From the NCBI GenBank assembly GCA_016720805.1, contig JADKJZ010000014.1, forward strand, positions 1,053,162-1,117,161: a DNA stretch of 64,000 bases, in the 5' to 3' direction. This document shows, one piece after another, positions 9,001 to 58,230 of this stretch (the stretch's first letter is position 1; the number at the start of each line of letters is the position of its first letter). The notes under the pieces are model-generated. The model was not told the DNA's origin. It saw only the letters and a list, made by a program, of their open reading frames with translations, and ran no database searches. This DNA is from Gemmatimonadota bacterium. GTDB taxonomy: Bacteria; Gemmatimonadota; Gemmatimonadetes; Gemmatimonadales; GWC2-71-9. The translations under genes and the position numbers were made by a program.

Positions 9001-9234
9001 GCGCGCATTGCGCTCTCGTTGACGGGAGATGCCGCATTGCTTGACGCGGCGCGGGTGCATCAGGAATACATCGCCGGCGAGACGCTGGCGCGCGAGTTCA
9101 CGATCGGGGAGGCCGCGACGGAGCCTGATCGGCAGGAGGCATTCGAAGTCGAAGGACACGCTGGCGCACTCGCGGTACGCCAGCTCGGGAACGGTCGGAC
9201 CCCTTCCGGCCCTGCACAGGTGAACGCATCGTGA
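6028..9234 (+). CDS. ileS: Isoleucine--tRNA ligase
   Basis: 'PPTANGRPGIHHV' (HIGH-type) and 'KMSKSKGN' (KMSKS) motifs, with full-length class I editing synthetase architecture. Start assigned to the in-frame GTG at 6028; the upstream 524 codons of track ORF 4456..9234 overlap yggS and the sigma gene and read as Arg/Gly/Pro junk. Confidence 0.93.
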   Translation: MSADETPSTNPTAARHPAWPDGGADALERDLLARWESEGLFQQVQAATADGEGFVFFEGPPTANGRPGIHHVFSRTIKDLICRYQAMQGKRVTRIAGWDTHGLPVELEVEKQLGFAGKKDIEAYGVAEFSKKCLESVFTYRDEWVQLSNRTGYWLDYDNAYVTCTKEYVESVWWLLQRLFQKELLYRGHRVSPYCPRCGTVLSSHELALGYAEVKDKSVYVTFPLSDGSGRELVVWTTTPWTLPSNVAVAVNPELEYAEFTSPAHPGRTFVLAASRAAKAAELLGEGTTMGASVPGAQLAGLRYARPFDIVTMPADGAHSIVVTGAFVTADDGSGLVHMAPAFGADDYAAGREHGLALVRPVAGDGTFVGTSWPELNGKLVTADDTNEMLIRKLKELGRHLKTEQYIHSYPHCWRCHSKLIYYARESWFVRTSSVKARMQELNAGIAWHPPEVGTGRFGEWLGNNVDWALSRKRYWGTPLPIWVSDRDPEYVEVIGSYAELKEKAGFTPTGDLDVHKPWVDEITWPAPGGGTMRRVPEVIDTWFDSGSMPYAQWHYPFENVDQFERHFPADYICEGIDQTRGWFYSLLAIGTAAFDAAPYRNVIVNELVLDASGQKMSKSKGNVVDPWKLVEKHGADAARLYMVLSSQVWQPKRFDERQLVETAGGFLNTLRASYHFFSLYAGPDGAAAPAAADRPLADRWLLGRLDATVAAVRAAFDGYDVTTGVRALTEFVVDDLSNWWVRLNRGRFWAPGREADPSAVATMREALVSVSRLLAPAAPFASDWLHRAMTGTSVHLAPFPVDAGRLDPALDRAMDGIRRLASLGRAARETASLRVRQPLATIRVAVPVEVRGADFDALIPLLQGETNVKRVEIVTSDADLVRLRGKPNFRTLGKRFGAEVKGVAASVALLTAEQLRALEQGESVTADYLLLPEDVTIEREVVTDWPVASAGPFVVALDPVVTPALAQEGLARELVSRVQRLRKDAGFAVSARIALSLTGDAALLDAARVHQEYIAGETLAREFTIGEAATEPDRQEAFEVEGHAGALAVRQLGNGRTPSGPAQVNAS

Positions 9235-9614
9235 CCAAGACCCAGCTCAAGCATCTCGAGGGGCGGCTCCTGGAGGAGCGCGCGCGCGTCATGAAGGAAC
9301 TCGGCTACTACGACGAGCAGTTCAACAACACGCTGCAGGGCGCCGACGGCGACCTCTCGTCGTATTCGCTCCACATGGCCGATCAGGGCACCGATGCCAT
9401 GGAACGCGAGAAGCAGTTCCTGATGGCCTCCAAGGAAGGCCGCTACCTGTGGCACCTCAACGAGGCGCTCCGCCGGCTGTACAACAGCCCCGCGAATTTC
9501 GGCAAGTGCCATCAGTGCGGCGCGCTGATCGACTTCGAGCGGCTCGACGCGCTGCCCCACGCCCGGCTCTGCATCTCCTGCAAGGAGAAGGAAGAGGATG
9601 CCAAGAAGCGCTGA
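9231..9614 (+). CDS. DksA/TraR-family C4 zinc-finger protein
   Basis: C-terminal 'CHQCGALIDFERLDALPHARLCISC' four-Cys finger after a coiled-coil N-terminus. GTG start overlaps the ileS stop. Confidence 0.8.
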   Translation: MTKTQLKHLEGRLLEERARVMKELGYYDEQFNNTLQGADGDLSSYSLHMADQGTDAMEREKQFLMASKEGRYLWHLNEALRRLYNSPANFGKCHQCGALIDFERLDALPHARLCISCKEKEEDAKKR

Positions 9615-10107
9615 TCGCCGGGTCCCGTTCTGGGGCGTGCTCGCCGTCACCGTGCTGCTCGACCGGATCACCAAGATGATCGCGGAGAGCCGTCTGGTGT
9701 GGGGCGACGCGCCCATCCCGGTCATCGGGGACTTCACCCGGTGGCGGCTGGTGTACAACACCGGCGCCGCCTTCGGCCTCCACCTCGGCAGTTACTCGCG
9801 CTGGGCCTTCATGCTGATCGCCTGCGTGGCCGTCGTCGTGCTGTACAAAATGTGGCGGGAGGCCGACGTGGCCGACCGCTTTCGTCAGCTCGCCCTCGCC
9901 TTCGTGGCGGGCGGCGCCGTCGGCAACCTCATCGACCGGGTCCTCTCGGCACGCGGGGTCGTCGACTTCATCGACATGGGGATCGGCGAAGGCTTGCGCT
10001 GGCCGACCTACAATGTCGCCGACATCGCTGTCACCTGCGGGGCGCTCGCCCTCGCGATTTCTCTCTGGCGCGAGGATGCGCGGCGCGCTCCCGCGCCGAC
10101 CGCCTAG
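9598..10107 (+). CDS. lspA: Lipoprotein signal peptidase II
   Basis: 'YNTGAAFG', 'GNLIDR', 'VVDFID', 'WPTYNVADIAV' LspA motifs and four hydrophobic segments. Classical ileS-lspA neighbourhood. Confidence 0.9.
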   Translation: MPRSADRRVPFWGVLAVTVLLDRITKMIAESRLVWGDAPIPVIGDFTRWRLVYNTGAAFGLHLGSYSRWAFMLIACVAVVVLYKMWREADVADRFRQLALAFVAGGAVGNLIDRVLSARGVVDFIDMGIGEGLRWPTYNVADIAVTCGALALAISLWREDARRAPAPTA

Positions 10108-10123
10108 GCGGTCAGGCCCGGTC

Positions 10124-11122
10124 GTGGAATTCTCCGTCGTCCCAGTGCAGGCAGAGCGGCTCGACCGCTATCTCGCCGATCAGTTGCAACTCTCGCGCAC
10201 CGTGGCAGCGCGCATAGTCGCCGCCGGCCACATTCGCTGCGGCGCCAAGGTGCTCCGCGCATCGCACCTCCTGGCGCGCGGCGACGTCGTCACCGTCGAC
10301 ATTCCCGAGACCGAGGAACCGCGGCGGATCACGCCGAATCCGATCGAGCTGACGGTCATCCACGAAGACGAGGACCTCGCCGTCATCGACAAGCCGGCGG
10401 GCCTCGTCGTGCATCCTGCCCCCGGGCACTGGGATGACACGCTGGTGAACGCCCTTGTGGCCCGGGGCACCACGCTCGCCGGTGGTGCCGAGGGGCGGCC
10501 CGGCATCGTGCACCGGCTCGACCGCGACACCAGTGGACTGCTGATTGTTTCCAAGACGGACCTGGCACACCGTCGACTCGGGCAGATGATTGCCGCTCGG
10601 CGCGTCTCGCGGGTGTACGCCGCCATGGTCTGGGGCCACCTCGACGAGGAGAAGGTGATCATCGAGGCGCCGCTGGCACGGCACCCGAAGGACCGGAAGC
10701 GGATGTCGATCCAGGCCGATGGGCGGGCCGCGCGGACCGACGCCTTCCCGATCGTCCGGCTCGGGCCGGTCTCGATTGTCCGGCTCGAGCTGCACACCGG
10801 CCGAACTCACCAGATCCGCGTCCACCTCGAGTCGATCGGGCACCCCATCGTGGGCGACCCGGTCTACCCCGGCGGTGGCGCCAAGCGAATCACCGGGGTG
10901 GGGAAGGCCAAGGCGAAGGAACTCGAAGCCCTGGCCCCCCGGCAGGCACTTCACGCCGCCCTTCTCGCGTTCCGCCACCCGAGCAGCGGGGTGCCGCTGG
11001 AGCTGCGTTCGGCCTGGCCCGCTGACCTCTGGCCCCTGCTGCAGGCCGCCGGCGCCGGGGACCTGACGATGCCGCGGGAAGAGGTCCTGGACGCGATTGG
11101 CTTCTTCGGGTCGGATGGCTGA
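10124..11122 (+). CDS. rluD: RluA/RluD-family 23S rRNA pseudouridine synthase
   Basis: N-terminal S4-like 'RLDRYLADQL', catalytic 'HRLDRDTSGLLIVSK', 'HQIRVH'. Start set at the first in-frame GTG after the lspA stop (uncertain). Confidence 0.85.
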   Translation: MEFSVVPVQAERLDRYLADQLQLSRTVAARIVAAGHIRCGAKVLRASHLLARGDVVTVDIPETEEPRRITPNPIELTVIHEDEDLAVIDKPAGLVVHPAPGHWDDTLVNALVARGTTLAGGAEGRPGIVHRLDRDTSGLLIVSKTDLAHRRLGQMIAARRVSRVYAAMVWGHLDEEKVIIEAPLARHPKDRKRMSIQADGRAARTDAFPIVRLGPVSIVRLELHTGRTHQIRVHLESIGHPIVGDPVYPGGGAKRITGVGKAKAKELEALAPRQALHAALLAFRHPSSGVPLELRSAWPADLWPLLQAAGAGDLTMPREEVLDAIGFFGSDG

Positions 11123-11474
11123 GCGGGCGGGGGTAGGCGGGCTGGTTGTCCGGGTCGCCGGCACCCGCTGGTTCATCCCGGTCACCGGCGTGATCGAGGT
11201 CCTCCGCGAGGCGGTCGTGGCGCGGGTCCCGGGCACCCCGCCGGCCGTCCGGGGGATGGTCAATCACCGCGGCCGGGTGCTGACCGTGGCCGACCCTATC
11301 CGGGCATTGGGGCTGTCGGGCGATACTGGGGGAGAGGTCGACGTGGTCGTCGTGGACGCCGGGGGACACCGCTTTGCGGTGGCCGTCGACGGGGTCGTGG
11401 AGCTGGCCGCCGAGCCGCGCACGGGCCTTGCAACGTTGGACCTCGACCAGGTCGCGACCGCGATCTTTGCCTGA
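11115..11474 (+). CDS. cheW: CheW-like coupling protein
   Basis: 'VVRVAGTRWFIPVTGVIEVL ... VPGTPPAVRGMVNHRGRVLTVADP' fits the CheW fold. ATG at 11115 (TTG at 11097 also possible) overlaps the rluD stop. Confidence 0.8.
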   Translation: MAERAGVGGLVVRVAGTRWFIPVTGVIEVLREAVVARVPGTPPAVRGMVNHRGRVLTVADPIRALGLSGDTGGEVDVVVVDAGGHRFAVAVDGVVELAAEPRTGLATLDLDQVATAIFA

Positions 11475-11494
11475 CCCTTCAGCCGGAGGCCAGC

Positions 11495-11860
11495 GTGGCC
11501 CATCGGGTGCTCATCTGCGACGACGCGATCTTCATGCGAACCATGATCGCCGACATTCTCACCGGGGCCGGCTATGACGTCGTCGGCGAGGCCGAAAGCG
11601 GCTTGCAGGCCGTCGAGCGGTACAAGGCGCTCCTCCCCGACATCGTGACCATGGACATCGTCATGCCGGACATGGGCGGAATCGACGCCGTCCGGGCGAT
11701 CGTCACGGCCCACCCCGACGCCAAGATCCTGATGTGCTCCGCCATGGGGCAGCAGGCGCTCGTGGTCGAGGCGATTCAGGCCGGCGCCAAGGACTTCGTC
11801 GTCAAGCCGTTCCAGCCGGCCCGCGTCCTCGAGGCCGTCCAGCGCGTTATGGCGGGATGA
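11495..11860 (+). CDS. cheY: CheY-like single-domain response regulator
   Basis: Receiver residues are present: 'VLICDD', 'DIVTMDIVMPDMGG', 'ILMCSA', 'VVKPF'. GGAGG lies 6 nt upstream of the GTG start. Confidence 0.9.
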   Translation: MAHRVLICDDAIFMRTMIADILTGAGYDVVGEAESGLQAVERYKALLPDIVTMDIVMPDMGGIDAVRAIVTAHPDAKILMCSAMGQQALVVEAIQAGAKDFVVKPFQPARVLEAVQRVMAG

Positions 11861-13356
11861 CCGAGGCGCGGCGGGCGCGGTACGTCGCGCTCTTCGCGGC
11901 GGAGTCGCGCTCGCTGCTGGCCGGCGCGCGCCGCGCCCTCGCGGCCTGGCTCGACGCCCCCGCCGAGCGCGCCCCGGCCGACGAAGTCTTCCGCACGCTT
12001 CACACCATCAAAGGAATGGCCGCCTCGCTCGAATACGAGGCGATCGCCGAACTGGCGCACACCACGGAGAGCGCGCTGGTCGCCGTGCGCGACAGCGGGG
12101 ACCCGGCGGACCGGACCTGGCTTCGTGACCTCGAGGCGACCCTCGACCAGATCGCCCTCGGCTGCGAAGCCGCCGCCGCGGCCGAAGGGGAGGCTGCACC
12201 GGGCGAACAGGCCGCCGCACCGGCCCGCATCGTCCGCGTCGACCTCGATCGCCTCGACGCGCTGTTCGAGGACCTCGGCGGGTTGGTGACCGCTCGGCAG
12301 GAACTCGAACGCCACGCCGAGCGGGACACCCTCTCGCCGGTGGCTCGTGCGGCGCAGGTGATGGCGCGCCGCCTCGACACGCTCCAGGACCGGATTCTCC
12401 ATGTTCGCCTCGCCCCCTTGAGCGAGGTGTTCGAGCGAATTCCGCCGATCGTGCGCGACCTTGCCCGGCAGCTTGGCAAGGAGGTGACGGTGCAGGTGCA
12501 GGGCGAGGCGCTGGAGGTGGACCGGGCCGTGCTCGATCAACTGGCCGAACCGCTGATCCACCTGCTGCGAAACGCCGTGGACCACGGCCTCGAGTCGCCG
12601 GACGTGCGCCGCGCGCTCGGCAAGCGCCCCGCCGGGTCGGTGACGCTCAAGGCACGCCGTGACCGGGATTCGGTGGTGCTCGAACTGAGCGATGATGGCC
12701 GCGGTATCGATCGAGCGGCCGTCGCCGCGCGGGCGGTGGCGCAGGGGATTCTCGAATCCGATGCTTCGCTCAATGACGACGGCTTGCTCGCCGTGCTGGC
12801 GCGCCCCGGCTTCAGCACCGCCGCCTCGGTGACGGATGTCTCCGGCCGCGGCGTCGGGCTCGATGTCGTGGCGTCTCGATTGCATGACCTCGGCGCATCG
12901 CTATCGCTCACCACGGTGCCCGGGCGGGGAACGACCTTCGTGGTGCGGTTGCCGACCCGGCTCGGCATTGTCCGTGCGCTGGTCGCCTCGATCGGTGAGG
13001 AGCGGTACGTGATGCCGCTGACGCACGTCGCCGAGTTCCTGCCATGGGAGCCGGAGGCGGTGCAACACGTTGATGGCCGGGCGGTCATCGAGTTGCGCGG
13101 CGAGCTGATCCCGGTGCTCGACCTGCGGCGCTTGCTGCTCTATCGCGGCGAGGCGCCGCCGGCTCGACGTCCGGCGCTGGTGTTCGAAGCCAACGGGCAG
13201 CGGGTCGCCCTCCTGGCCGATGCGATTCACGGCCAGGTCGATGCCGTGGTGCAGCCGCTGGATCGACCGCGCGGGATGCCACGGTGGATCACCGGCGCCA
13301 CGGTCCTCGACAACGGGCGACCGGCGTTGCTGCTCGACCTGGCCAGCGTAGTGTAG
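11857..13356 (+). CDS. cheA: Chemotaxis histidine kinase CheA (compact form)
   Basis: HPt 'FRTLHTIKGMAA', N-box 'HLLRNAVDHGLE', G1 'DDGRGID', G2 'SGRGVGLDVV', C-terminal CheW-like domain. ATGA overlap with cheY. Confidence 0.9.
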   Translation: MTEARRARYVALFAAESRSLLAGARRALAAWLDAPAERAPADEVFRTLHTIKGMAASLEYEAIAELAHTTESALVAVRDSGDPADRTWLRDLEATLDQIALGCEAAAAAEGEAAPGEQAAAPARIVRVDLDRLDALFEDLGGLVTARQELERHAERDTLSPVARAAQVMARRLDTLQDRILHVRLAPLSEVFERIPPIVRDLARQLGKEVTVQVQGEALEVDRAVLDQLAEPLIHLLRNAVDHGLESPDVRRALGKRPAGSVTLKARRDRDSVVLELSDDGRGIDRAAVAARAVAQGILESDASLNDDGLLAVLARPGFSTAASVTDVSGRGVGLDVVASRLHDLGASLSLTTVPGRGTTFVVRLPTRLGIVRALVASIGEERYVMPLTHVAEFLPWEPEAVQHVDGRAVIELRGELIPVLDLRRLLLYRGEAPPARRPALVFEANGQRVALLADAIHGQVDAVVQPLDRPRGMPRWITGATVLDNGRPALLLDLASVV

Positions 13357-13357
13357 G

Positions 13358-13393
13358 AATCGATGATCGATGATCGATGATCGATCATCGATT
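13358..13393. repeat. Heptamer-palindrome element (GATGATC)n(GATCATC), hairpin-forming
   Basis: aatcgatgatcga / tgatcgatga / tcgatcatcgatt: 13358-13370 is the exact reverse complement of 13381-13393. Sits in the 61-nt gap between the cheA stop and the cheC start. Confidence 0.85.
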
Positions 13394-47669: not shown

Positions 47670-49123
47670 TCGTCGCCGTGGCGATCGGCTACCTCGCGCT
47701 CTGTCTGCTGATCGGGGCGTGGGCCGCGCGCCGCACGCACTCGGCGCAGGACTTCTTCGTCGCTGGCGCGGGGATCGGGCTGTGGCCGTTGGCGATCGCA
47801 TCGATGGCGGCCACACTGTCGGGCTTCGCGTTCATTGGCGGTCCCGGCTTGCTCTACAGCGTGGGTACCGGTGCGCTCTTCATTGTGCTGCCTGCCGGCA
47901 TCACCGGGGCACTGAGTGCCTGGCTGCTGGGGAGTCGGATGCGCCTGCTGGGCGAAGTGCGGGGCCTGATGACCGTCCCCGACGCGATCGGCGTGCGGTA
48001 CCGGTCGCGGGCCGCGCAGGGGCTCTCGGCGCTCGCCATCCTGGTGGCGACGATCGGATACCTTGCGACCAACCTGCTCGCGCTCGGCCTGATCATCGAC
48101 GCGATCTTCCACACGGGGCTCCCGCTGGGGATCGTGATCGGCGCGGTGGTGGTGGTGGCCTACTCGGCCGCCGGAGGCATCCTCGCCGGCATCTACACCG
48201 ATCTGGTGCAGGGGGCCATCATGGCGCTCGCCTCGATGCTGGTCTTCGGCGCGGCGATGACCAGCGGTGGGGGGCTCGGCGGCATCTCGCGGACCATCCT
48301 GGCGCATGAGCCGATGCTGCTCGGGCCGTGGGGGAAATTCACCCCGCTGGCGGCGCTCTCCTTCTTCTTCGTATTCGCCCTGGGCACGCTGGGCCAGCCG
48401 CACGTGATCCACAAGTACTACATGCTGCGCGATCCTCGTCGGTTGCGGTGGTACCCGTTGCTGATGACCGGGGCGATGGTGGTGACGCTGCTGCTCTACT
48501 TTGGCGTGGGTGTCGCGATCAAGGCCGCGGTCCTGCGGGGTGACGTCCCGCCGCTGGCGAGGGGGGATGACGCCACCCCGACCTTCCTGCTGCGCTACAC
48601 GGCCCCCTGGCTCGCGGGGCTCGTCTTCAGCGGCGTCGCCGCTGCGATCATGAGTACCGTCAATTCCTTCTTCAGCGTCGGCGCGGCCGCGATCACGCAC
48701 GATCTTCCCGTGGCATTCGGACGTCGCGCCACAAACGAGTTGCGAGGTGGCCGGATGGCGACGCTCGCGTTGGCGGTCCTCGCGACATTGCTTGCCCTCG
48801 GCAGCGGCCAGGCCGTGGCCCTCCTCGGCGTCTTCGGCTGGGGGCTCTTTGCCTCGACCCTCGTACCGGCACTCGCCATCGGACTGAACTGGCCAGGAGC
48901 CACCCGGAAGGGGGCCCTCGCCTCGATCGGCGTCGGTCTGGTGACCACCCTCCTCTTCGAGACCCTCGCCTGGGCCAAGGCCTACACCTTCCCGGCCGGC
49001 GTCACGGTCTCGGGACTCTCCCTGATCCTGGCGATGGCCACCTTCTTCGCGGTGTCGTGGCTGACGCGCGACGAGGCGGAGGGAGATCTCGATGCGGACG
49101 TGCGGGTGATCATCGAAAGCTGA
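47666..49123 (+). CDS. Sodium:solute symporter (SSS) family transporter
   Basis: About 13 hydrophobic segments. The N-terminal 'FFVAGAGIGLWPLAIASMAATLSGFAFIGGPG' is typical of the SSS family. Confidence 0.85.
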   Translation: MIVAVAIGYLALCLLIGAWAARRTHSAQDFFVAGAGIGLWPLAIASMAATLSGFAFIGGPGLLYSVGTGALFIVLPAGITGALSAWLLGSRMRLLGEVRGLMTVPDAIGVRYRSRAAQGLSALAILVATIGYLATNLLALGLIIDAIFHTGLPLGIVIGAVVVVAYSAAGGILAGIYTDLVQGAIMALASMLVFGAAMTSGGGLGGISRTILAHEPMLLGPWGKFTPLAALSFFFVFALGTLGQPHVIHKYYMLRDPRRLRWYPLLMTGAMVVTLLLYFGVGVAIKAAVLRGDVPPLARGDDATPTFLLRYTAPWLAGLVFSGVAAAIMSTVNSFFSVGAAAITHDLPVAFGRRATNELRGGRMATLALAVLATLLALGSGQAVALLGVFGWGLFASTLVPALAIGLNWPGATRKGALASIGVGLVTTLLFETLAWAKAYTFPAGVTVSGLSLILAMATFFAVSWLTRDEAEGDLDADVRVIIES

Positions 49124-49133
49124 AGGGTCGTTA

Positions 49134-49170
49134 CGATGATCGATCATCGATCATCGATCATCGATCGTCG
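49134..49170. repeat. Heptamer-palindrome element (GATGATC)(GATCATC)n
   Basis: cgatgatcga-tca-tcgatcatcg (49134-49156) forms a 10-bp stem with a 3-nt loop, followed by further GATCATC units. Lies between the symporter stop and the recG start. Confidence 0.85.
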
Positions 49171-49191
49171 AATCTCTCTTATCTTGGTCTC

Positions 49192-51255
49192 ATGGCCCAA
49201 CTCCGCCTCGACACTCCCATCCAGTTCCTGAAAGGCATCGGCGAGAAGCGCGCCGACGCCTTCGCGCGGCTGGGCGTGGTGTCGGTGCACGACCTGCTGC
49301 ACCACCTGCCGCATCGCTACATCGACGCCTCGACCACCACGCCGCTCGCGCAGGCGCGTGTCGGCGATGATGTGGCGTGCATCGGTACGGTCGTCAGCAA
49401 GGGGGTGCTGCCGACGCGGAAGGGGCTGCGGGTCTTCCATGCCGTGCTCAAGGATGCGAGCGGGTTGCTGGAGTGTGCCTGGCCCGGGCAGGCGTTCCTC
49501 GACCGGACGCTGGCCGTGGGGCAGTTGATCCTCGTGGCAGGCCCGATCCGCTTCTATCACGGCCGGCAGATGGCACCGCGCGAGCTGGTGATTCTCGGCG
49601 ACGCCGACGATCCGGCTGCCGCGGGGCGGATCCTCCCGGTCTATCCCGCCACCGAGGGGCTCTCGCACAAGCAGATCCGCGCGCTGATGGAGACGCACCT
49701 CGACACCCTCTCGCCGTTGGTGCCGGACGTCCTCGACCCGACGCTGCGCGACCGCTTTGCGTTGCCGTCATTGGCGGATGCACTGCGGGCTGTGCACCGC
49801 CCGACGACGATGGCGGAGGCGGAGTCGGGACGGCGCCGGTTGGCACTGGACGAACTGCTCGACCTGCAGCTCATGTTGGCGCGCGCTCGTCACGTGGCGC
49901 GCCATGGGCAGCGCGGCCAGACCTTCACGCTGCACAAGACCTTCACGTCACAGCTGCGCGAGGCGCTGCCGTGGCCGCTCACCGGCGACCAGAAGAAGGC
50001 GATCCGCGAGATCTTCGAGGACATGACGCACGAGGAGCGGATGCACCGCCTCGTGATGGGCGATGTCGGCACCGGGAAGACGGTGGTGGCGCTCTTCGCA
50101 ATGCTGCTGGCGCTGGAGAACGACTGCCAGGCCGCCCTGATGGCGCCGACGGAACTGCTCGCCGAGCAACACCACCGGACGCTCACGACGCTGCTCGCCC
50201 CGCTTGGGCTCGTGCCGGAGCTGCTGCTCGGGCGACTGACCGCAGCCGAGAAGAAGGCGGCGCACGCCCGGCTGCGCACCGGTGCCACGAAGCTGGTTGT
50301 CGGGACGCATGCACTCGTGCAGGAGTCGGTGGCCTTCCAGCGCCTCGGCCTGGTGGTGATCGACGAACAGCACCGCTTCGGGGTGGAGCAACGCGCTGCG
50401 CTGATGGGGAAGGGGGAGGCACCCGACGTGCTGCTGTTGACCGCCACGCCTATCCCGCGCTCGTTGGCACTGACGCGCTACGGCGACCTCGATGCCTCGC
50501 TGCTCAAGGAGCGGCCGCCTGGGCGCGGCACCATCCGCACCGCCGTCCGCACGCCGTCGCAACGTCGGCGGGTCTTCGAGTTCCTGCGCGAGACGGCACT
50601 CAAGGGCGGGCAGGTCTACATCGTCCTGCCGGTGATCGAGGAGTCGGAGAAGGCCGACCTGCGCGCGGCGCAGACGATGGCGACCTCGCTCACGGCGCAG
50701 TGGCCGGATGTGACGGTCGGACTGGTGCATGGCCGGCTCAAGGCACCAGAGCGTGATCAGGTCATGCGCGACTTCCGCGACGGCAAGATCGGCGTGCTGG
50801 TCGCCACCACGGTGATCGAGGTCGGGATCGACGTCGCGAATGCGACGGTCATGGTCATCGAGCATCCGGAGCGCTTCGGGCTGGCGCAGTTGCACCAGCT
50901 CCGCGGCCGCGTCGGACGGGGGAGCGGCGACTCGCACAGCATCCTGCTCACCGTCGGCGAGGACGTCCCGGAGCGGCTCCGGGCGTTCTCGAAGACCGAC
51001 GACGGCTTCGCGATCGCCGAGCTCGACTTGCAGGAGCGCCGGCAAGGCGACCTGCTCGGCGCCCGGCAGTCCGGCGGCGTCGACTTCAAGGTGGCCCGCT
51101 TCCCGGACGACACCGACCTGCTCACCGAGGCGCGCGCCCTCGCGCGCACGATTCTCGACGCCGACCCGACCCTGGACCGCCGCGAGCATCAGGCGCTGAA
51201 GGATCGGGTGGTGACGCGGTATCCGAGGGGGGAGACGTTGTTTAGGGTGGGATGA
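49192..51255 (+). CDS. recG: ATP-dependent DNA helicase RecG
   Basis: Wedge-domain N-terminus, 'MGDVGTGKTVVA', 'DEQHRFGV', 'TATPIPRS', 'QLHQLRGRVGRG'. Confidence 0.9.
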   Translation: MAQLRLDTPIQFLKGIGEKRADAFARLGVVSVHDLLHHLPHRYIDASTTTPLAQARVGDDVACIGTVVSKGVLPTRKGLRVFHAVLKDASGLLECAWPGQAFLDRTLAVGQLILVAGPIRFYHGRQMAPRELVILGDADDPAAAGRILPVYPATEGLSHKQIRALMETHLDTLSPLVPDVLDPTLRDRFALPSLADALRAVHRPTTMAEAESGRRRLALDELLDLQLMLARARHVARHGQRGQTFTLHKTFTSQLREALPWPLTGDQKKAIREIFEDMTHEERMHRLVMGDVGTGKTVVALFAMLLALENDCQAALMAPTELLAEQHHRTLTTLLAPLGLVPELLLGRLTAAEKKAAHARLRTGATKLVVGTHALVQESVAFQRLGLVVIDEQHRFGVEQRAALMGKGEAPDVLLLTATPIPRSLALTRYGDLDASLLKERPPGRGTIRTAVRTPSQRRRVFEFLRETALKGGQVYIVLPVIEESEKADLRAAQTMATSLTAQWPDVTVGLVHGRLKAPERDQVMRDFRDGKIGVLVATTVIEVGIDVANATVMVIEHPERFGLAQLHQLRGRVGRGSGDSHSILLTVGEDVPERLRAFSKTDDGFAIAELDLQERRQGDLLGARQSGGVDFKVARFPDDTDLLTEARALARTILDADPTLDRREHQALKDRVVTRYPRGETLFRVG

Positions 51256-51290
51256 TGGATGATGGATGATGGATGATGGATGATCGATGG
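51251..51290. repeat. Direct heptamer array (GATGATG)x4-GATGATC-GATGG
   Basis: Read directly. Begins inside the last recG codons and stop (tga 51253-51255). Confidence 0.9.
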
Positions 51291-51303: not shown

Positions 51304-51350
51304 TGTCATCCTGAGCGTAATGGCCCGAAGGGCCGCGCAGTCGAAGGACC
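51304..51350. repeat. 47-bp GC-rich hairpin element, copy A (TGTCATCCTGAGCG...GCGCAGTCGAAGGACC)
   Basis: tgtcatcctgagcg-taatggcccgaagggcc-gcgcagtcgaaggacc, with an internal ggccc-gaa-gggcc hairpin. Its flanks match the reverse complement of 52497-52543. Confidence 0.8.
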
Positions 51351-51404
51351 TACGACCTACGACCTACGACGTACGACCCTAACAACCAACGACCAACGAC
51401 TAAC
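51349..51404. repeat. Heptamer arrays upstream of paralog 1: (CCTACGA)x3+CGTACGA, then four NACNAAC-like units
   Basis: cctacga cctacga cctacga cgtacga ccctaac aaccaac gaccaac gactaac, ending 8 nt before the GTG at 51413. Confidence 0.9.
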
Positions 51405-51412
51405 GGCTCTCC

Positions 51413-52441
51413 GTGTACTCCACCTGCCTCTTCTGCACCAAGGACCTCGGCACCAACGAGGTGATCGAGACGCTGCCCATCGGGCGGCGGCTCGCCTTTG
51501 ATGCGTCGCAGGGTCGGCTCTGGGTGGTGTGCCGGCACTGCGCCAAGTGGAACCTGGTGCCGTTCGAGTCGCGGCTCGAGAGCATCGACGCGTGCGAGCG
51601 ACTCTTCCGCGACACGCCGACGCGGTACTCGACCGACAACATCGGCTTGGCGCGGGTGAAGGAGGGCTTGGAGCTGGTGCGGATCGGGCCGGCGCAGCGG
51701 CCGGAGTTTGCGGGGTGGCGGTATGGGGACCAGTTCAGGCGACGGCGTCGGCGGAACCTCCTGATCGGTGTTGGCGGCGCGGCGTTAGTGGGTGGGGCAG
51801 TGTTGGCACCTGGCCTGTCTGGCGGCATGGGAGCGCTTGCAGCGGTGTTCGCCTATCAATGGGGCGACGTCGCATTCGCAGCACTCAGAGCTTCCCGAGG
51901 CCGGATGGCGGTCGTCGATCCTCGGAATGGCGTCCGCCAGACACTCTGGCGAACGGCGATGACGAGCGCGCGCGTCGCGTGGCGGGATAGCACGCCCGTG
52001 TTGCGCGTCATGCCCCTCCTCAGCCGGAAGCTCGAGTGGCACGGCGATGACGTCCCTCGCATCGGTCAACGGGTTATGGCCGGGGTCAACTTGCTCGACG
52101 GGGGCCGGAAGGCACTGGCGGCGGCGACCACAATACTGGGAGACCACCACGGCGATCTTTCGAGCTGGATGATGCTTCGGTCGAAGGAGCCGGGTTTCGT
52201 CGATCCGCGCACCGGGAGCTCCCCGGTCTTCGCCGCGAATCGTGCCGACTATTGGCAGGGATATGGCGAACCCATGCTCATCATCGGCAAGCTTCCCGAG
52301 GTCGAGCGGCTGGCCGTAGAGATGTACTTCGCCGAATCCGCCGAACGCAACTACCTCGAGGGTGAGCTCACACTTCTCGAGCGCGAATGGCGTCAGGCGG
52401 AGCAACTCGCGAAGATTGCCGATGGGCTGGCGCTGGAGTAG
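51413..52441 (+). CDS. Paralog 1: zinc-ribbon / membrane-hairpin protein of unknown function
   Basis: 342 aa. N-terminal CxxC-x31-CxxC (C5,C8,C40,C43) plus C61, 'RRRRRN', a Gly/Ala-rich hydrophobic stretch, a unique middle, and the conserved tail 'ERNYLEGELTLLEREWRQAEQLAKIADGLAL'. GTG start. Confidence 0.7.
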   Translation: MYSTCLFCTKDLGTNEVIETLPIGRRLAFDASQGRLWVVCRHCAKWNLVPFESRLESIDACERLFRDTPTRYSTDNIGLARVKEGLELVRIGPAQRPEFAGWRYGDQFRRRRRRNLLIGVGGAALVGGAVLAPGLSGGMGALAAVFAYQWGDVAFAALRASRGRMAVVDPRNGVRQTLWRTAMTSARVAWRDSTPVLRVMPLLSRKLEWHGDDVPRIGQRVMAGVNLLDGGRKALAAATTILGDHHGDLSSWMMLRSKEPGFVDPRTGSSPVFAANRADYWQGYGEPMLIIGKLPEVERLAVEMYFAESAERNYLEGELTLLEREWRQAEQLAKIADGLALE

Positions 52442-52469
52442 GCGAGAAGCGAGAAGCGAGAAGCGATAA
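52442..52469. repeat. Direct heptamer array (GCGAGAA)x3-GCGATAA
   Basis: Read directly. Begins immediately after the paralog-1 stop codon. Confidence 0.9.
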
Positions 52470-52476
52470 GGGCCAA

Positions 52477-52543
52477 GTGCATTCGCGAGCACGCAGGTCC
52501 TTCGACTGCGCAGCCCTGCGGGCTGCTTCGCTCAGGATGACAT
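52477..52543. repeat. 'GTGCATTCGCGAGCACGCAG' box + 47-bp GC-rich element, copy B (inverted relative to copy A)
   Basis: The reverse complement of 52497-52543 is atgtcatcctgagcg-aagcagcccgcagggct-gcgcagtcgaaggac. The 14- and 15-nt flanks are identical to copy A, with a different but still hairpin-forming core (cagccc-tgc-gggctg). Confidence 0.8.
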
Positions 52544-52547
52544 AACT

Positions 52548-52640
52548 CCTACGACCTACGACTTACGACCTACGACCTACGACCTACGACTTACGACCTA
52601 CGACGTACGACCCTAACGACCAACGACTAACGACTAACGA
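52548..52640. repeat. Expanded heptamer arrays upstream of paralog 2: 9 NNTACGA units, then four NACNAAC-like units
   Basis: cctacga x2, cttacga, cctacga x3, cttacga, cctacga, cgtacga; then ccctaac gaccaac gactaac gactaac. Same arrangement as upstream of paralog 1, but 9 units instead of 4. Confidence 0.9.
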
Positions 52641-52646
52641 CTCTCC

Positions 52647-53705
52647 GTGTACTCCACCTGCCTCTTCTGCACCAAGGACCTCGGCACCAACGAGGTGATC
52701 GAGACGTTGCCCATCGGGCGGCGGCTCGCCTTTGATGCGTCGCAGGGTCGGCTCTGGGTGGTGTGCCGGCACTGCGCCAAGTGGAACCTGGTGCCGTTCG
52801 AGTCGCGGCTCGAGAGCATCGACGCGTGCGAGCGACTCTTCCGCGACACGCCGACGCGGTACTCGACCGACAACATCGGCTTGGCGCGGGTGAAGGAGGG
52901 CTTGGAGCTGGTGCGGATCGGGCCGGCGCAGCGGCCGGAGTTTGCGGGGTGGCGGTATGGGGAGCAGTACAACCGCCGTCGGCGGAATGCCTATCTGATC
53001 GGGGGCGCGGGCGTGGTGGTTGGAATGGGGGCGATCGCCGCGCTGAGCGCGTTCGGCTTTGCGGCGGCCAGTGGTGGCTATCTCAGCTATCAACTCGTGA
53101 AGGCAGGATGGGATGCCGGGCTGAATCGCCAGGCCAGGTTTCTGCTCCCCGATCCCGATCCCGCCGCGCGCGAGACGGTGCGACTCGATCGCAGTCACCT
53201 GAAGCACGCCACGATTTCCTGGGAAGACGGCACGCCATCGCTGGACCTTCCCCACCCGAAGCACCTCAAGAAGGGGGACTTCGTCCTCTCCTACCGCGGT
53301 GCCGAGCTGCAGTCGGTGGGGCGTCGGGCTGTCGCTGGCCTCAACCTGCTTGTTGGCGGACGATCCCAGTTGCAGGAAGGCAGCCGGATCCTCGCGGAGA
53401 ATCACGGCGATCTCTCGGACTGGCTCCGCCGCCGCACCGTTGCACTCGCGGACGTCCCCAAGGCCGGAACCCCGAAACACTGGGTGAACTACACTGCCCC
53501 TTACCTTGTGCTCGACAAGCTCAACGCCGGTGACCGCATGGCCGTCGAACTCTGGATGAACGAGGACATCGAGCGGCAGTGGCTCGAGGGAGAGCTTACT
53601 CTTCTGGAGCGCGAATGGCGTCAGGCGGAGGAGCTGGCCAAGATCAGCGATGCGCTGGCGCTGCCGGAGACGGCGGATGAGGAACTCGCGAAACGGAAGG
53701 GGTAA
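52647..53705 (+). CDS. Paralog 2: zinc-ribbon / membrane-hairpin protein of unknown function
   Basis: 352 aa. The first 317 nt differ from paralog 1 at a single synonymous position. The middle is unrelated to paralog 1. Tail 'ERQWLEGELTLLEREWRQAEELAKISDALAL'. Confidence 0.7.
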   Translation: MYSTCLFCTKDLGTNEVIETLPIGRRLAFDASQGRLWVVCRHCAKWNLVPFESRLESIDACERLFRDTPTRYSTDNIGLARVKEGLELVRIGPAQRPEFAGWRYGEQYNRRRRNAYLIGGAGVVVGMGAIAALSAFGFAAASGGYLSYQLVKAGWDAGLNRQARFLLPDPDPAARETVRLDRSHLKHATISWEDGTPSLDLPHPKHLKKGDFVLSYRGAELQSVGRRAVAGLNLLVGGRSQLQEGSRILAENHGDLSDWLRRRTVALADVPKAGTPKHWVNYTAPYLVLDKLNAGDRMAVELWMNEDIERQWLEGELTLLEREWRQAEELAKISDALALPETADEELAKRKG

Positions 53706-53751
53706 GTGCATTCGCGAGCACGCAGCTCCCTCGCTGCGCTCGGGATGACAT
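53706..53751. repeat. 'GTGCATTCGCGAGCACGCAG' box + short GC-rich element, copy C
   Basis: The same 20-nt box as at 52477-52496, followed by ctccctcgctgcgctcgggatgacat (reverse complement atgtcatcccgagcgcagcgagggag). Can fold as cgagcacgcagc-tccctc-gctgcgctcg. Confidence 0.75.
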
Positions 53752-53782
53752 CGATCATCGACCATCGATGATCGATCATCGA
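53751..53782. repeat. Heptamer-palindrome element
   Basis: tcgatcatcga-cca-tcgatgatcga (53751-53775) forms a perfect 11-bp stem with a 3-nt loop, followed by tcatcga. Lies between paralogs 2 and 3. Confidence 0.85.
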
Positions 53783-53792
53783 GCCCTGGGGA

Positions 53793-54827
53793 GTGTTTCT
53801 CATTTACTCAACCTGTCTTTTCTGCACCAAGGACCTCGGCACCAACGACGTCCTCGAGACCCTGCCCATCGGCCGGCGCATCGCGTTTGATGCGGCGGAG
53901 GGGCGGTTGTGGGTCGTGTGCCGGCATTGTGCCAAGTGGAACCTGGTGCCGTTCGACTCGCGCCTCGAAACGATTGACGATTGCGAGCGGCTCTTCCGCA
54001 GCACCACGATGCGCTACTCGACCGACAACATCGGGCTGGCGCGCGTGAAGGAAGGGCTCGAGCTGGTGCGGATCGGTGAGGCGCAGCGGCCCGAGTTCGC
54101 GGGGTGGCGCTACGGCGACTCGTTCGGGCGCCGCCGCCGCCGCAACCTCCTGATTGCCGGCGGGGTCGCCGCAGCGGGGATCGCGGTGGTCTCCGGCGGA
54201 CTCGCGATGGGCGTCTCCTTCGGCATGCTCGGCCAGCTCCCGAACTACTACAACCTCTTTGTGGTGAATCGTCGCGTCACGGTGCGGGTGCCACGCGCCG
54301 ACGGCCCACCGATCGAGCTGTCCGACGCGCTCGCCTCGAAGGCACGTCTCGTGCGCCGACCGAACAACGAGTGGCTAATCCGCACCAAGGTGATGGAAGA
54401 GTCCAGCATGAGTCGCAAGCTTCGGAAGGCCGGGTCGCAGGAGATCGAGTTCACCGGTGCGGAGGCCGAACAGCTACTTGCCGGCGTGCTCGTGCGCCTG
54501 AATCGGTGGGGCGGGACCCAACGCACCGTACGCGAGGCGGTCGACCTGGTCGAACGACAGGGCGACAGCGCCGGCGTCATCGCGGGCCCGTTCTCACCGG
54601 TGATGGATGGCAGCGGCTCACAGCTGCTCGCCAAGACCCCGTCCGAATGGCGCCTCGCCGCCGAGATCGCGCTCAATGAGAGCTCGGAACGCCTCGCCCT
54701 CGCCGGCGAACTGCGGGTGCTGGAATGGCAGTGGAAGGAAGCCGATCGGCTCGCGAAGATCAGCGACTCGCTGGCGGTGCCGGAGTCGATCGACGAGGAG
54801 TTGGCCCGGCGGAAGGATGATCGATGA
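53793..54827 (+). CDS. Paralog 3: zinc-ribbon / membrane-hairpin protein of unknown function
   Basis: 344 aa. N-terminal domain is roughly 85% identical in protein to paralogs 1 and 2 (by eye) but clearly diverged at the DNA level. Unique middle. Tail 'ERLALAGELRVLEWQWKEADRLAKISDSLAV'. GTG start at 53793 (uncertain). Confidence 0.65.
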   Translation: MFLIYSTCLFCTKDLGTNDVLETLPIGRRIAFDAAEGRLWVVCRHCAKWNLVPFDSRLETIDDCERLFRSTTMRYSTDNIGLARVKEGLELVRIGEAQRPEFAGWRYGDSFGRRRRRNLLIAGGVAAAGIAVVSGGLAMGVSFGMLGQLPNYYNLFVVNRRVTVRVPRADGPPIELSDALASKARLVRRPNNEWLIRTKVMEESSMSRKLRKAGSQEIEFTGAEAEQLLAGVLVRLNRWGGTQRTVREAVDLVERQGDSAGVIAGPFSPVMDGSGSQLLAKTPSEWRLAAEIALNESSERLALAGELRVLEWQWKEADRLAKISDSLAVPESIDEELARRKDDR

Positions 54828-54845
54828 TCGATGATCGATCATCGA
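54816..54845. repeat. Heptamer-palindrome element (GATGATC)x3(GATCATC)
   Basis: tcgatgatcga-tga-tcgatcatcga (54821-54845) forms an 11-bp stem with a 3-nt loop. Overlaps the last codons and stop of paralog 3. Confidence 0.85.
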
Positions 54846-54913
54846 CTTCTGTCACCCAACTGTCATCTTGTCGCCATCTGTCGCCCCAATATTCGAAAAT
54901 CTCCACCCCATCC

Positions 54914-55951
54914 ATGTACTCCACCTGTCTCCTCTGTGCCGACTCGTTGGGGACGAACGCCGTCCTCGAGACGCTCCCCGTGGGGCGGCGCCTGGCGTTT
55001 GACCCGGCCAAGGGACGGCTCTGGGTCGTCTGCCCCGGCTGTGCCCGATGGAACCTGGTTCCCTTCGACAATCGGCTCGAGGCGATCGACGAGTGCGAGC
55101 GCCACTTCCGCGACACCCGCGTTCGCTTCTCCACCGGGACGATCGGCATGGCCCGGATGCCGGACGGCACCGAACTGGTGCGGATCGGCGAGGCGCTTCG
55201 TCCCGAGTTCGCGGCGTGGCGGTACGGCCGCGAGCTGTTGCGTCGGCGGCGGCGTGCCCTCCCATTCGGGACGCAGCGCGAGCACACCGGCGTGGCGGCG
55301 TGGATCTCCGATGTGGCCACGATGGTCGGCACGCTGATCGCCATCCCCTTCCTCGAGGGAGCGATCGGCCCGCGCCACGCCGTGAGCGCCGTGCGCCTCG
55401 TGCGCGATCCGTGGACCGGCAACCTGCTCCGCGTCCGCGCGCTGGCGATGGTGCGCTCCGTCCTGGCGCGCGAGGACGACCAGTGGCGGCTCGAAGTGCC
55501 CTATCGAAGCGAGCTCGACGTGGTGCTCGGCGACGATCCCCTCGCCATCACGTCCATCCGCGATCACCCCGCCGTCGGCTTCTTTCGGGGCGACAAGCTC
55601 TACGAGGGGCTCGCGAGGGTGCTGCCGACGATCGAGAGTCGCCTGCCGTCGGCGGGTGAGGTGCAGGAGGCGACCCGACTGCTCGAGCGGACCTCCGACG
55701 ATCCGGCGATGCTCATCGGCTATGTCACCGGACGGCCGTTGCGCCTCGGGACCCGGGGACAGTTCCCGTTGGCCGACGTGGCACCGGAGATCCGGCTCGC
55801 GCTCGAGATGGCCTCGCATGAGGAGACCGAGCGCCGTGCGCTCGAAGGGGAGCTGAAGCTGCTCGAGCACGAGTGGCGCGAGGCGGAGCGACTCGCGGCC
55901 ATCCTCGACGACCTCGCACTGCCCGCCGGAGGGCCCGATGCCGTCACGTGA
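54914..55951 (+). CDS. Paralog 4 (most divergent): zinc-ribbon protein of the same family
   Basis: ATG at 54914 within track ORF 54824..55951. 'CLLC ... CPGC ... DECERHF' keeps all five Cys, plus 'RRRRRA' and the tail 'ERRALEGELKLLEHEWREAERLAAILDDLAL'. Its own upstream region has no CTACGA array. Confidence 0.65.
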   Translation: MYSTCLLCADSLGTNAVLETLPVGRRLAFDPAKGRLWVVCPGCARWNLVPFDNRLEAIDECERHFRDTRVRFSTGTIGMARMPDGTELVRIGEALRPEFAAWRYGRELLRRRRRALPFGTQREHTGVAAWISDVATMVGTLIAIPFLEGAIGPRHAVSAVRLVRDPWTGNLLRVRALAMVRSVLAREDDQWRLEVPYRSELDVVLGDDPLAITSIRDHPAVGFFRGDKLYEGLARVLPTIESRLPSAGEVQEATRLLERTSDDPAMLIGYVTGRPLRLGTRGQFPLADVAPEIRLALEMASHEETERRALEGELKLLEHEWREAERLAAILDDLALPAGGPDAVT

Positions 55952-56729
55952 CGTCTATCTCCTGACGGTGTCCGCGGCTCCGCTCCTCGCGGCGCTGGTG
56001 GTGCTCTGCTGGATCGCCTCGCTCATCCGCCGCGACAGCTCACTCGTCGACCGGATCTGGGGACTCGGCTTCGTGCTGCTGGTGCACCATCACACGGCCT
56101 TCGCCGGGGAGGTCGGTGGCACGGTCGATCGGCTCTTCGCGGCACTGGTGGTGATCTGGGGGCTCAGGCTGACGTGGCACATCACCCATCGCAACTGGGG
56201 GCACGGCGAGGACCCCCGGTACGCCGCGATGCGCGCCAGGAACGGGGGCCGCTGGTGGTGGCAGAGCCTCTTCACCGTCTTCCTGCTTCAGGGGGCGCTG
56301 ATGCTCCTGATCGGCCTTCCGCTCGCAGCGACGGCGACGCCTGGCGCAGCGTGGGGACGGGCGCTCGGCAGCCTGCTCTGGGCGGTGGGGTTTGCCTTCG
56401 AGGCCGGCGGTGACTGGCAGCTCGCCCGCTTCAAGGCCAACCCGGCCAACCGCGGCCAGGTCCTCGATACCGGCTTCTGGCGCTACACCCGCCACCCGAA
56501 CTACTTCGGCGACGCCCTCCAGTGGTGGGGCTTATGGTGCTTTGCGGCGGCGACCGGCCTCTGGTGGACGATCGTCTCCCCGATCCTCATGACGCTGCTG
56601 CTCCTGAAGGTCTCCGGGGTGACCCTGCTGGAGTCGGCACTCGTCGACTCCAAGCCCGGCTATCGGGATTACGTCCGCCGAACACCGGCGTTCTTCCCGT
56701 GGTGGCCGCGGTCTGACGGCCGCGGATGA
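55938..56729 (+). CDS. DUF1295 / steroid-5-alpha-reductase-like membrane protein
   Basis: 'SLVDRIWGLGF', 'GEDPRY', 'GFWRYTRHPNYFGD' and multiple TM helices. The start overlaps the end of paralog 4 by 14 nt. Confidence 0.75.
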   Translation: MPSRDVYLLTVSAAPLLAALVVLCWIASLIRRDSSLVDRIWGLGFVLLVHHHTAFAGEVGGTVDRLFAALVVIWGLRLTWHITHRNWGHGEDPRYAAMRARNGGRWWWQSLFTVFLLQGALMLLIGLPLAATATPGAAWGRALGSLLWAVGFAFEAGGDWQLARFKANPANRGQVLDTGFWRYTRHPNYFGDALQWWGLWCFAAATGLWWTIVSPILMTLLLLKVSGVTLLESALVDSKPGYRDYVRRTPAFFPWWPRSDGRG

Positions 56730-56784: not shown

Positions 56785-56821
56785 CGTTTCACCCGTTCAC
56801 CGTTCACCGTTCACCGTTCAC
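56785..56821. repeat. Direct heptamer array (CGTTCAC)x4 preceded by a degenerate unit
   Basis: cgtttcac-c-cgttcac-cgttcac-cgttcac-cgttcac, ending 11 nt before the asnS ATG. Confidence 0.9.
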
Positions 56822-56832
56822 CGGTCCTCCGC

Positions 56833-58147: not shown

Positions 58148-58230
58148 GGATGATGGATGATAGATCATGGATGATGGATTGTTCGTTCCGCGACGGCCAT
58201 CCATCATCCATCATCCATCATCCATCATCC
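58148..58230. repeat. Long inverted heptamer repeat: (GGATGAT)n arm / 19-nt loop / (ATCATCC)n arm
   Basis: The left arm (58148-58179) matches the reverse complement of the right arm (58199-58230) at 30 of 32 positions. Sits between the convergent asnS and mazG genes; the right arm contains the mazG stop codon. Confidence 0.85.

Follow-up and report, generated by a model that had tools for sequence, protein, structure and literature searches.

Four consecutive genes at positions 51413-55951 of a 64,000-nucleotide stretch of a Gemmatimonadota bacterium genome (GenBank assembly GCA_016720805.1, contig JADKJZ010000014.1; this whole stretch is referred to as the window) belong, on the evidence of sequence, profile, and fold searches, to an undescribed protein family. 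The family is built of familiar parts: a zinc ribbon comes first, then a hairpin of two transmembrane (TM) helices, and then a small domain of the alpha/beta class, with a heptad helix at the end. Distinct paralog types are retained together in the array; the heads of the first two copies have been homogenized by gene conversion, types of the middle domain turn over between close relatives while purifying selection prevails, and the hairpin has been lost in the fourth copy. With a probability of roughly one in three (about 0.35), the proteins are membrane-tethered cytoplasmic adaptors or scaffolds.

Members and Distribution of the Family

All four genes lie on the forward strand. Copy 1 (51413-52441; 342 amino acids (aa), GTG start) is 100% identical to the hypothetical protein IPP98_15350 at NCBI, which was derived from a Gemmatimonadetes metagenome-assembled genome (MAG). 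It is followed by copy 2 (52647-53705; 352 aa, GTG start), which shares its architecture, and by copy 3 (53793-54827; 344 aa from the GTG at 53793, with family-conserved sequence starting at YSTC, 53805), which is of the membrane-anchored type and has a distinct middle domain. Copy 4 (54914-55951) comprises 345 aa when started at ATG 54914, which yields an MYSTC start as in homologs. A preliminary description, made from the nucleotide sequence alone, had recognized these genes as tandem paralogs, and this is borne out by the listing of open reading frames (ORFs) and by alignment (46-60% identity to copy 1). The hidden Markov model (HMM) of the family matches all four proteins over their full length, with similarity far above chance, and a direct-repeat finder recovered, at the DNA level, both the 5′ part with the N-domains (300 nt) and the 3′ part with the C-helices (103 nt), each in four copies.

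The reading frame of copy 4 is open from an ATG at 54824, which overlaps the stop codon of copy 3 (ATGA), and would give 375 aa from that first ATG. The 90 nt preceding MYSTC (54824-54913) are mostly encoded by a GATGATC heptamer array and are missing in the called orthologs (345 aa), and therefore this N-terminal extension is probably not translated.

Since the frames of the four genes are intact and their GC content at third codon positions (GC3, 0.81-0.86) is similar to that of neighboring genes, the pseudogenization considered in the preliminary description does not apply; pseudogenes and selfish repeats are both ruled out by these features together with ratios of nonsynonymous to synonymous substitution (dN/dS) far below 1. 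By these measures the family appears real, expressed-looking, and evolutionarily maintained, although it carries no annotation.

More than 6,600 relatives of copy 1 were found, essentially all of them full-length. When 1.84 billion cluster representatives were searched with a profile, 2,512 clusters at 50% identity were obtained (1,018 at E ≤ 1e-30), and the best 150 of the 2,512 are all full-length. In a scan of GTDB with one genome per species, at least 586 encoding stretches were detected, the best 80 of which belong to Gemmatimonadota (Gemmatimonadales and Longimicrobiales), except for one titled only "uncultured bacterium". A tandem pair of family genes is also present in the cultured type species Gemmatimonas aurantiaca (P0266). 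Judged on the named matches, the family appears to be restricted to Gemmatimonadota. No relatives were found by tblastn in phage and plasmid collections or by a scan of IMG/VR.

That the family could not be placed, as the preliminary description had conceded, also holds after sequence, profile, and fold searches, as no curated family or solved fold gives a significant match. The four proteins have no significant match in Pfam, NCBIfam, PADLOC, or PHROGs (0 families of PADLOC-DB 2.0 at E ≤ 1 for any of them), and hmmscan of all 118 aligned members against Pfam at E ≤ 1 gave no significant family match. Among PDB sequences, no significant match was obtained with the four paralogs, the 118-sequence family profile, or the middle-domain profile; the best one, ZO-1 PDZ2 (E 0.62), was dismissed because a PDZ strand was aligned to a predicted helix. 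Foldseek yielded nothing at E < 0.001, whether the full model was compared with PDB and BFVD or the middle-domain model with PDB, and nothing relevant was found in the literature on Gemmatimonadetes signature proteins.

Gemmatimonadota are abundant in soils and genetically hardly studied, and a large, phylum-specific-looking family that is present even in a cultured type species has thus far remained without annotation, Pfam model, or structural relative. With its domain boundaries, likely topology, membrane-anchored and soluble subfamilies, and unusual evolutionary regime described, it merits a new Pfam/DUF entry and genetic work in G. aurantiaca or G. phototrophica. Nothing yet demonstrates a new mechanism.

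Domain Architecture

Conservation, measured as the frequency of the most common residue over 115-258 members, is 0.8-0.93 in the head, with many invariant columns, 0.65-0.83 in the tail helix, and only 0.2-0.5 in the hairpin and middle domain, so that the constant ends around a variable middle noted earlier are evident in the profile. The level reached by the head is one usual for core machinery. An AlphaFold2 monomer model of copy 1, based on an alignment of 118 sequences, has a mean local confidence (pLDDT) of 84 and a predicted template modeling score (pTM) of 0.77, the latter suggesting that the domains pack together. In copy 1 the segments are the N-domain (codons 1-105, 51413-51727), the Arg run with the hydrophobic hairpin (codons 106-162, 51728-51898), the variable alpha/beta middle domain (codons 163-295, 51899-52297), and the heptad C-helix (codons 296-342, 52298-52438).

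The head is predicted to be a four-cysteine (Cys) zinc-ribbon alpha/beta domain of ~105 aa that binds zinc. In the model (residues 1-95) it consists of the zinc-ribbon strands, a helix (54-67), and a three-stranded sheet, strands 26-30 and 35-39 preceding the second Cys knuckle. The CxxC-x31-CxxC pattern seen initially is upheld, as C5, C8, C40, and C43 are invariant in the four-copy alignment and present in 97-100% of 258 members, and two CxxC knuckles separated by a beta-hairpin are the arrangement of zinc ribbons and treble clefs. The fifth Cys that had been taken as conserved, C61, occurs in only 76% of these members. In 97 of the 118 aligned members, the segment WVVCxxCxKW resembles the first knuckle of zf-CW (PF07496) below threshold (~12 bits, the cut-off being 27.5; matches at only 17 of the 47 positions of the profile). 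This is also the best score among the curated zinc-ribbon families zf-CW, Zn_ribbon_TFIIB, and Zn_ribbon_Thio2, whose cut-offs are 22-27.5 bits. In zf-CW the other Cys pair lies downstream, whereas in the present family it lies upstream, and, unlike in known zinc-ribbon families, the domain is extended by a conserved helix plus a three-stranded sheet for which there is no match. The zf-CW signal, as a sub-threshold resemblance, says "zinc knuckle" and nothing more.

An RRRR run following WRYG is present in all four copies, as originally described. It is succeeded by an uncharged span with a median length of 40-42 aa, which contains 40% Gly+Ala and is rich in small-xxx-small spacings; the model shows two long helices here (101-131 and 140-162). 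On average, 4.9 Lys+Arg residues are found in the 15 aa before the span and 3.9 in the 15 aa after it, and at least two Lys/Arg follow it in 97% of members. According to the positive-inside rule, positively charged flanks stay cytoplasmic, and Arg/Lys-rich flanks on both sides therefore indicate that both ends are cytoplasmic and that the span would form a helical hairpin in the inner membrane. An internal Tat signal was rejected, given the position of the Arg run (residue 110) and the positive charge on either side of the span. Entropy is higher in the hairpin than anywhere else in the protein, and the dN/dS of the hairpin reaches 0.46; this poor conservation of its sequence argues for an anchor rather than a pore.

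A hydrophobic hairpin had been assigned to all four proteins. This stands for copies 1-3, in which the free energy (dG) of the best 17-aa window is 0.4-1.1 kcal/mol, but not for copy 4 (3.8 kcal/mol), whose 42-aa segment holds five charged residues. Orthologs of copy 4 in eight other genomes have the same charged, non-hydrophobic segment; this clade has neither hairpin nor signal peptide, while head, middle, and tail are all kept. By these features the copy 4 clade has lost the hairpin and its proteins are probably soluble, and it follows from the retention of the remaining domains that these function in the cytoplasm.

The middle domain (165-295) is modeled as an alpha/beta fold with pLDDT > 90, and the same fold, with five strands, a helix, and a late sixth strand, is obtained when it is modeled alone (pLDDT 87). 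The middles had been described as lacking obvious similarity to one another. For some pairs this is true of pairwise BLAST, by which copies 1 and 2 are 33% identical (E 3e-20; 33-36% over all comparisons of these two middles) and the other pairs give E values of 0.008-16, but a profile built from the middles of other members, from which the window copies and the three relatives closest to them had been left out, matches copies 2, 1, 3, and 4 with E values of 4e-33, 6e-27, 1e-20, and 1.6e-3, respectively (nominal database size 1e6). The middle also aligns with few gaps across 115 homologs, in which the motifs GRRV..LN..G and A..LL....GDL..W are conserved. Profile and model thus describe the four middles as one homologous domain, and the earlier impression of unrelated segments is not supported, in partial agreement with what the preliminary description had said would refute it. 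A PilZ-like, cyclic di-GMP-binding reading of the family was rejected because RxxxR and DxSxxG are not in register.

The terminal motif is found in all four copies, as had been reported. It falls within the tail helix (296-339 in the model), whose conserved hydrophobic residues at 315, 319, 322, 326, 329, 333, 336, and 339 form a 3-4 heptad seam.

Gene Conversion, Selection, and Turnover of Middle-Domain Types

Copies 1 and 2 are identical at 314 of 315 nt over codons 1-105 and at ~95% in the 60 nt upstream, and their identity drops to ~50% directly after codon 105 (WRYG). In the same stretch, identity to the window copies is only 87-92% for the positional orthologs of both copies in two close relatives (loci L088 and L001). 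Near-identity with a sharp 3′ edge at a domain boundary points to a recent gene-conversion tract, which comprises ~60 nt of 5′ leader and the whole N-domain (51353-51727 on the copy 1 side and 52587-52961 on that of copy 2). Domain-precise conversion between the two heads is the reading of this pattern, and conversion is confined to the head. In keeping with concerted evolution, a tree of heads groups window copies 1 and 2 with each other, and likewise the two of L001, while in a neighbor-joining tree of middle plus tail each of the four window copies pairs with the gene at the same position in L001. Positional orthologs of copies 1-4 exist in both L001 and L088, the clade of the last copy spans nine genomes, and Gemmatimonadaceae loci share a conserved pair of copies 1 and 2. 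A recent origin of the paralogs is not supported, since these positional orthologs show them to be ancient.

Selection was assessed by the Nei-Gojobori method on positional orthologs, the window being compared with L088 and L001. The dN/dS values are 0.01-0.10 for the head, 0.06-0.46 for the hairpin, 0.07-0.28 for the middle, and 0.02-0.32 for the tail, as against 0.025 for RecG, 0.03-0.04 for AsnS, and 0.10-0.16 for the DUF1295 protein encoded next to the array. The diversifying selection suspected in the preliminary description is not supported, since the values for the middle, although elevated relative to those of RecG, AsnS, and DUF1295 (0.025-0.16), are those of purifying selection. Judged by these ratios, selection is relaxed in the middle and purifying in every segment.

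The diversity of the middles was confirmed in another form, namely as turnover of types between close relatives, although no positive selection was detected by dN/dS. The genomes compared (L088, L001, and L086) differ from the window by ~1% of amino acids in RecG and AsnS (proportion of nonsynonymous differences, pN, ~0.012 for RecG). Overall, identities of middle types between close relatives run from 40% to 94%. The middle of the copy 1 type has identities to the window copy of 82% in L088, 40% in L001, and 80% in L086 (its second copy); the corresponding values are 90%, 58%, and 53% (its third copy) for the copy 2 type and 90%, 92%, and 72% (its fifth copy) for the copy 4 type. The copy 3 type is 67% identical in L088 and 80% in L001 and has no counterpart in L086 (≤31%). 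The latter locus (JGI Ga0498926_0000428, 6854-12579) contains five family genes, one of which has a middle type that is ≤29% identical to any other. Divergent middle pairs have a synonymous divergence (dS) of 1.2-2.8 versus 0.3-0.5 in flanking genes, and this excess suggests replacement by imported divergent alleles rather than positive selection in place. On these data the turnover of variable domains and the domain-precise conversion are genuine and unusual.

With regard to the other genes of L086, one is a second copy 2-like gene, and two are called with shortened N-termini (VIETLP/MIETLP), which a miscalled start or loss of the first CxxC may explain.

Possible Function

The nearest functional analogy would be the PHb group of two-TM proteins. 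PHb membrane proteins (DUF304/bPH_2, DUF1200, and DUF2244) have a PH-like domain inside the cell that is held at the membrane by two TM helices and can form rings (PMC2817789); PHb paralogs are often adjacent, as are DdE and DdF (ddE, ddF) of E. faecalis (PMC8657885). In the present family (copy 4 excepted), two TM helices likewise are predicted to precede a small intracellular domain of a beta-sheet plus helix. Adjacent paralogous genes are a feature of both groups, B. subtilis ydbST (YdbS/YdbT) being another such pair of PHb paralogs. The best Foldseek matches of the middle are PH-like (the N-terminal part of SSRP1/Pob3, the PLCg2 spPH, Avo1, and the PHb structure 3dcx_E), with E values of 0.45-2 and TM-scores (a measure of fold similarity) ≤0.43, and LytTR domains score similarly. 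In contrast to PHb proteins, the family has a zinc ribbon before the hairpin, a helical sub-domain, and, behind the beta part, a long heptad helix, and it appears restricted to one phylum. No bPH family is matched in Pfam by the four window proteins, and neither bPH_1 (PF08000) nor bPH_2 (PF03703) is among the 25 listed of the 42 Pfam families matched by the 118 members at E ≤ 1. In view of this mixed picture, in which the two-TM anchor is shared, an HMM match is lacking, and the PH-like Foldseek similarity is non-significant, the family is not filed as PHb.

As adaptors or scaffolds, the proteins would use the constant head and heptad helix for self- or cross-assembly, or for docking to one common, highly conserved partner. 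The Arg-flanked Gly/Ala-rich hairpin of ~40 aa, of which the composition is kept and the sequence is not, would be a simple inner-membrane anchor, and the variable, weakly PH-like domain of ~135 aa may bind a different cytoplasmic ligand or client in each paralog. The soluble copy 4 type might join or regulate the anchored paralogs. The array would evolve by tandem duplication and swapping of variable-domain types, gene conversion keeping the head and its 5′ leader uniform.

Several observations weigh against this proposal. In many members, the hydrophobicity of the second half of the span is marginal (dG 3-12 kcal/mol for each 17 aa), so that a one-pass topology is possible. A single copy is present in 36 of 51 GTDB loci with full flanks, and adjacent hetero-partners are therefore not obligatory. 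No gene beyond the local synteny block recurs beside the family in the loci examined, so that the context offers no functional partner, and, as given above, the PH-like similarity of the middle is non-significant even for the best Foldseek match.

In a sharper form of the earlier idea, the proteins might instead be independent intracellular recognition, immunity, or defense modules, in which the variable domain senses targets such as phage or toxin proteins, head and hairpin form the effector or signaling part, and the array is a repertoire upheld by frequent replacement of variable cassettes. This agrees with the gain, loss, or swapping of variable types between genomes whose RecG and AsnS are ~1% apart, with the import of divergent alleles indicated by the dS of the middle, and with the uniformity of the constant part under gene conversion; two-TM hairpin effectors are also common in abortive-infection systems. 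The immunity role mentioned early on nevertheless seems unlikely, as the dN/dS of 0.07-0.28 leaves no excess of replacement changes, PADLOC and PHROGs give no match, and no relatives occur on phage, plasmid, or IMG/VR contigs. Furthermore, the family is phylum-wide and, rather than showing a patchy distribution or a mobile or defense-island context, occupies a conserved housekeeping slot (recG-[array]-asnS-mazG-alr); the conservation of its head is unusual for defense genes, which are typically patchy in distribution, and the lack of conservation in the hairpin is not what would be expected of a pore-forming effector. Bacterial multigene families with constant ends and a variable core that are homogenized by conversion resemble the array in their tandem paralogs, in a near-identical constant part with a sharp edge, and in the turnover of types. 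Here, on the other hand, prediction places the variable domain in the cytoplasm rather than at the cell surface, each type is under purifying selection, and the array lies among housekeeping genes with no silent cassettes or phase-variation machinery seen.

A more specific form, which is distinctly improbable, would be an intracellular constant/variable recognition system peculiar to Gemmatimonadota, that is, a membrane-associated sensor repertoire, for instance against phage or toxin proteins, with converted head and helix, exchangeable variable cassettes, and one soluble paralog. Such a system would have no relative among known defense or signaling systems, and variable domains acting as recognition modules would constitute a new type of intracellular repertoire.

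It is doubtful, to a greater degree still, that the proteins are membrane-tethered regulators akin to zinc-binding anti-sigma (ZAS) factors, the zinc-ribbon head holding a transcription factor or another conserved housekeeping factor at the membrane and the variable domain taking the releasing signal. Membrane ZAS factors also place a cytoplasmic N-terminal zinc-binding domain before a membrane anchor, and the extreme conservation of the head, which holds from order to order within the phylum, points to a macromolecular partner that is itself conserved. The family differs in that its alignment lacks the ZAS motif HxxxCxxC, none of the 118 members matches an anti-sigma family in Pfam, no sigma-factor or regulator gene recurs beside the family in the loci examined, and, with a predicted outside loop of only a few residues, there is no periplasmic sensor domain.

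Glycine-zipper channels or membrane-stress proteins, whose hairpins would oligomerize into a pore or membrane-remodeling assembly gated by the cytoplasmic domains, are very improbable despite the 40% Gly+Ala, the many small-xxx-small spacings, and the Arg-rich flanks on both sides, since the hairpin is the least conserved segment, retained in composition only, and the whole copy 4-type clade has dispensed with it while keeping all else.

Genomic Context

Neighboring genes were called by a GC3 criterion, as stop-to-stop ORFs are uninformative owing to spurious ORFs in DNA of 68% GC. In Gemmatimonadales the slot is fixed as recG-[1 to 5 copies]-(DUF1295)-asnS-mazG-alr. In Gemmatimonas the pair is flanked by iscS/mnmA on one side and a cyclase gene on the other, the neighbors are different again in Longimicrobiales, and some genomes (OX639991.1 and CAZKYO01) contain a second family locus. 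The remaining GTDB loci with full flanks have two copies (8) or three copies (7).

Downstream of the array, a DUF1295 gene for a steroid-reductase/ICMT-like membrane enzyme (55938-56729, forward strand; Pfam E 3e-68) is overlapped by copy 4 by 14 nt, in agreement with the preliminary description. The overlap recurs only in the close relatives L001, L086, and L088, and DUF1295 adjoins the family in just 7 of 83 loci examined, so that the co-expression proposed from it does not extend to a general feature. On the basis of these counts, DUF1295 is a lineage-specific neighbor and not a conserved partner.

On the other side of the array, the recG ORF of the window (49057-51255, 732 aa), as listed, has its GTG start codon within heptamers of the CGATCAT type. 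Because orthologs have only 687 aa, the true start is probably an ATG near 49195 (MAQLRLDTPIQF...).

Toxin-antitoxin modules (RES/Xre-MbcA, Fic/MazE-like, and PemK) were observed near family loci of other genomes, at 3845-4681 in L084, where the module lies between an SSF transporter gene and a fragmented recG, and at 9525-10148 and 14447-15012 in L083. In contig_20234 of a long-read MAG (L003/L009, 10372-13700), asnS, mazG, and alr downstream of the array are split into short ORFs, probably as a result of assembly frameshift errors and not as pseudogenes; an apparent fourth array member there (10375-11388) proved to be a frameshifted asnS fragment.

Intergenic Repeats and Stem-Loops

Scans with Rfam and for tRNAs found nothing in or beside the array, and in a promoter/terminator scan the only matches fell within heptamer repeats, none of the spacers between copies giving a terminator. 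The element GTCATCCTGAGCG occurs, each time within a GC-rich stem-loop, in the spacers between recG and copy 1 (51305-51317, forward strand), copies 1 and 2 (52529-52541, reverse), and copies 2 and 3 (53737-53749, reverse). A GC-rich stem-loop follows the stop codon of copy 1 (52476-52543, forward strand), containing the element in reverse orientation, and a similar one follows that of copy 2 (53706-53750); both lack a U tail. Their folding energies are -30.3 kcal/mol (z = -1.6) and -23.3 kcal/mol (z = -3.1), respectively. These stem-loops may be elements that resemble repetitive extragenic palindromes (REP-like), stabilize mRNA, or serve in processing.

Heptanucleotide tandem arrays (period 7, 4-11 copies) are found in nearly every intergenic spacer of this part of the genome, with units such as GGATGAT, CGACCTA, GCGAGAA, GATGATC, and TTCACCG. 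They lie at 49134-49171, 51250-51289, 51347-51400, 52442-52470, 52548-52641, 53749-53782, 54816-54845, 56788-56823, 58148-58179, and 58198-58230, and also at 13359-13392. The array at 51347-51400 (GACCTAC, 7.4 copies) is directly upstream of copy 1 and partly within the conversion tract, and that at 52548-52641 (CCTACGA, 11 copies) is directly upstream of copy 2. Arrays of the ACGACCT/ACGACTA type closely precede family genes, and those of the GCGAGAA type closely follow them. Heptamer arrays are also present at the equivalent spacers of L088, L001, and L086, and they resemble the short tandemly repeated repetitive (STRR) heptamer sequences of cyanobacteria. In several ORFs, translated heptamers yield N-terminal extensions of the type IIDHRSS/MMDDR.

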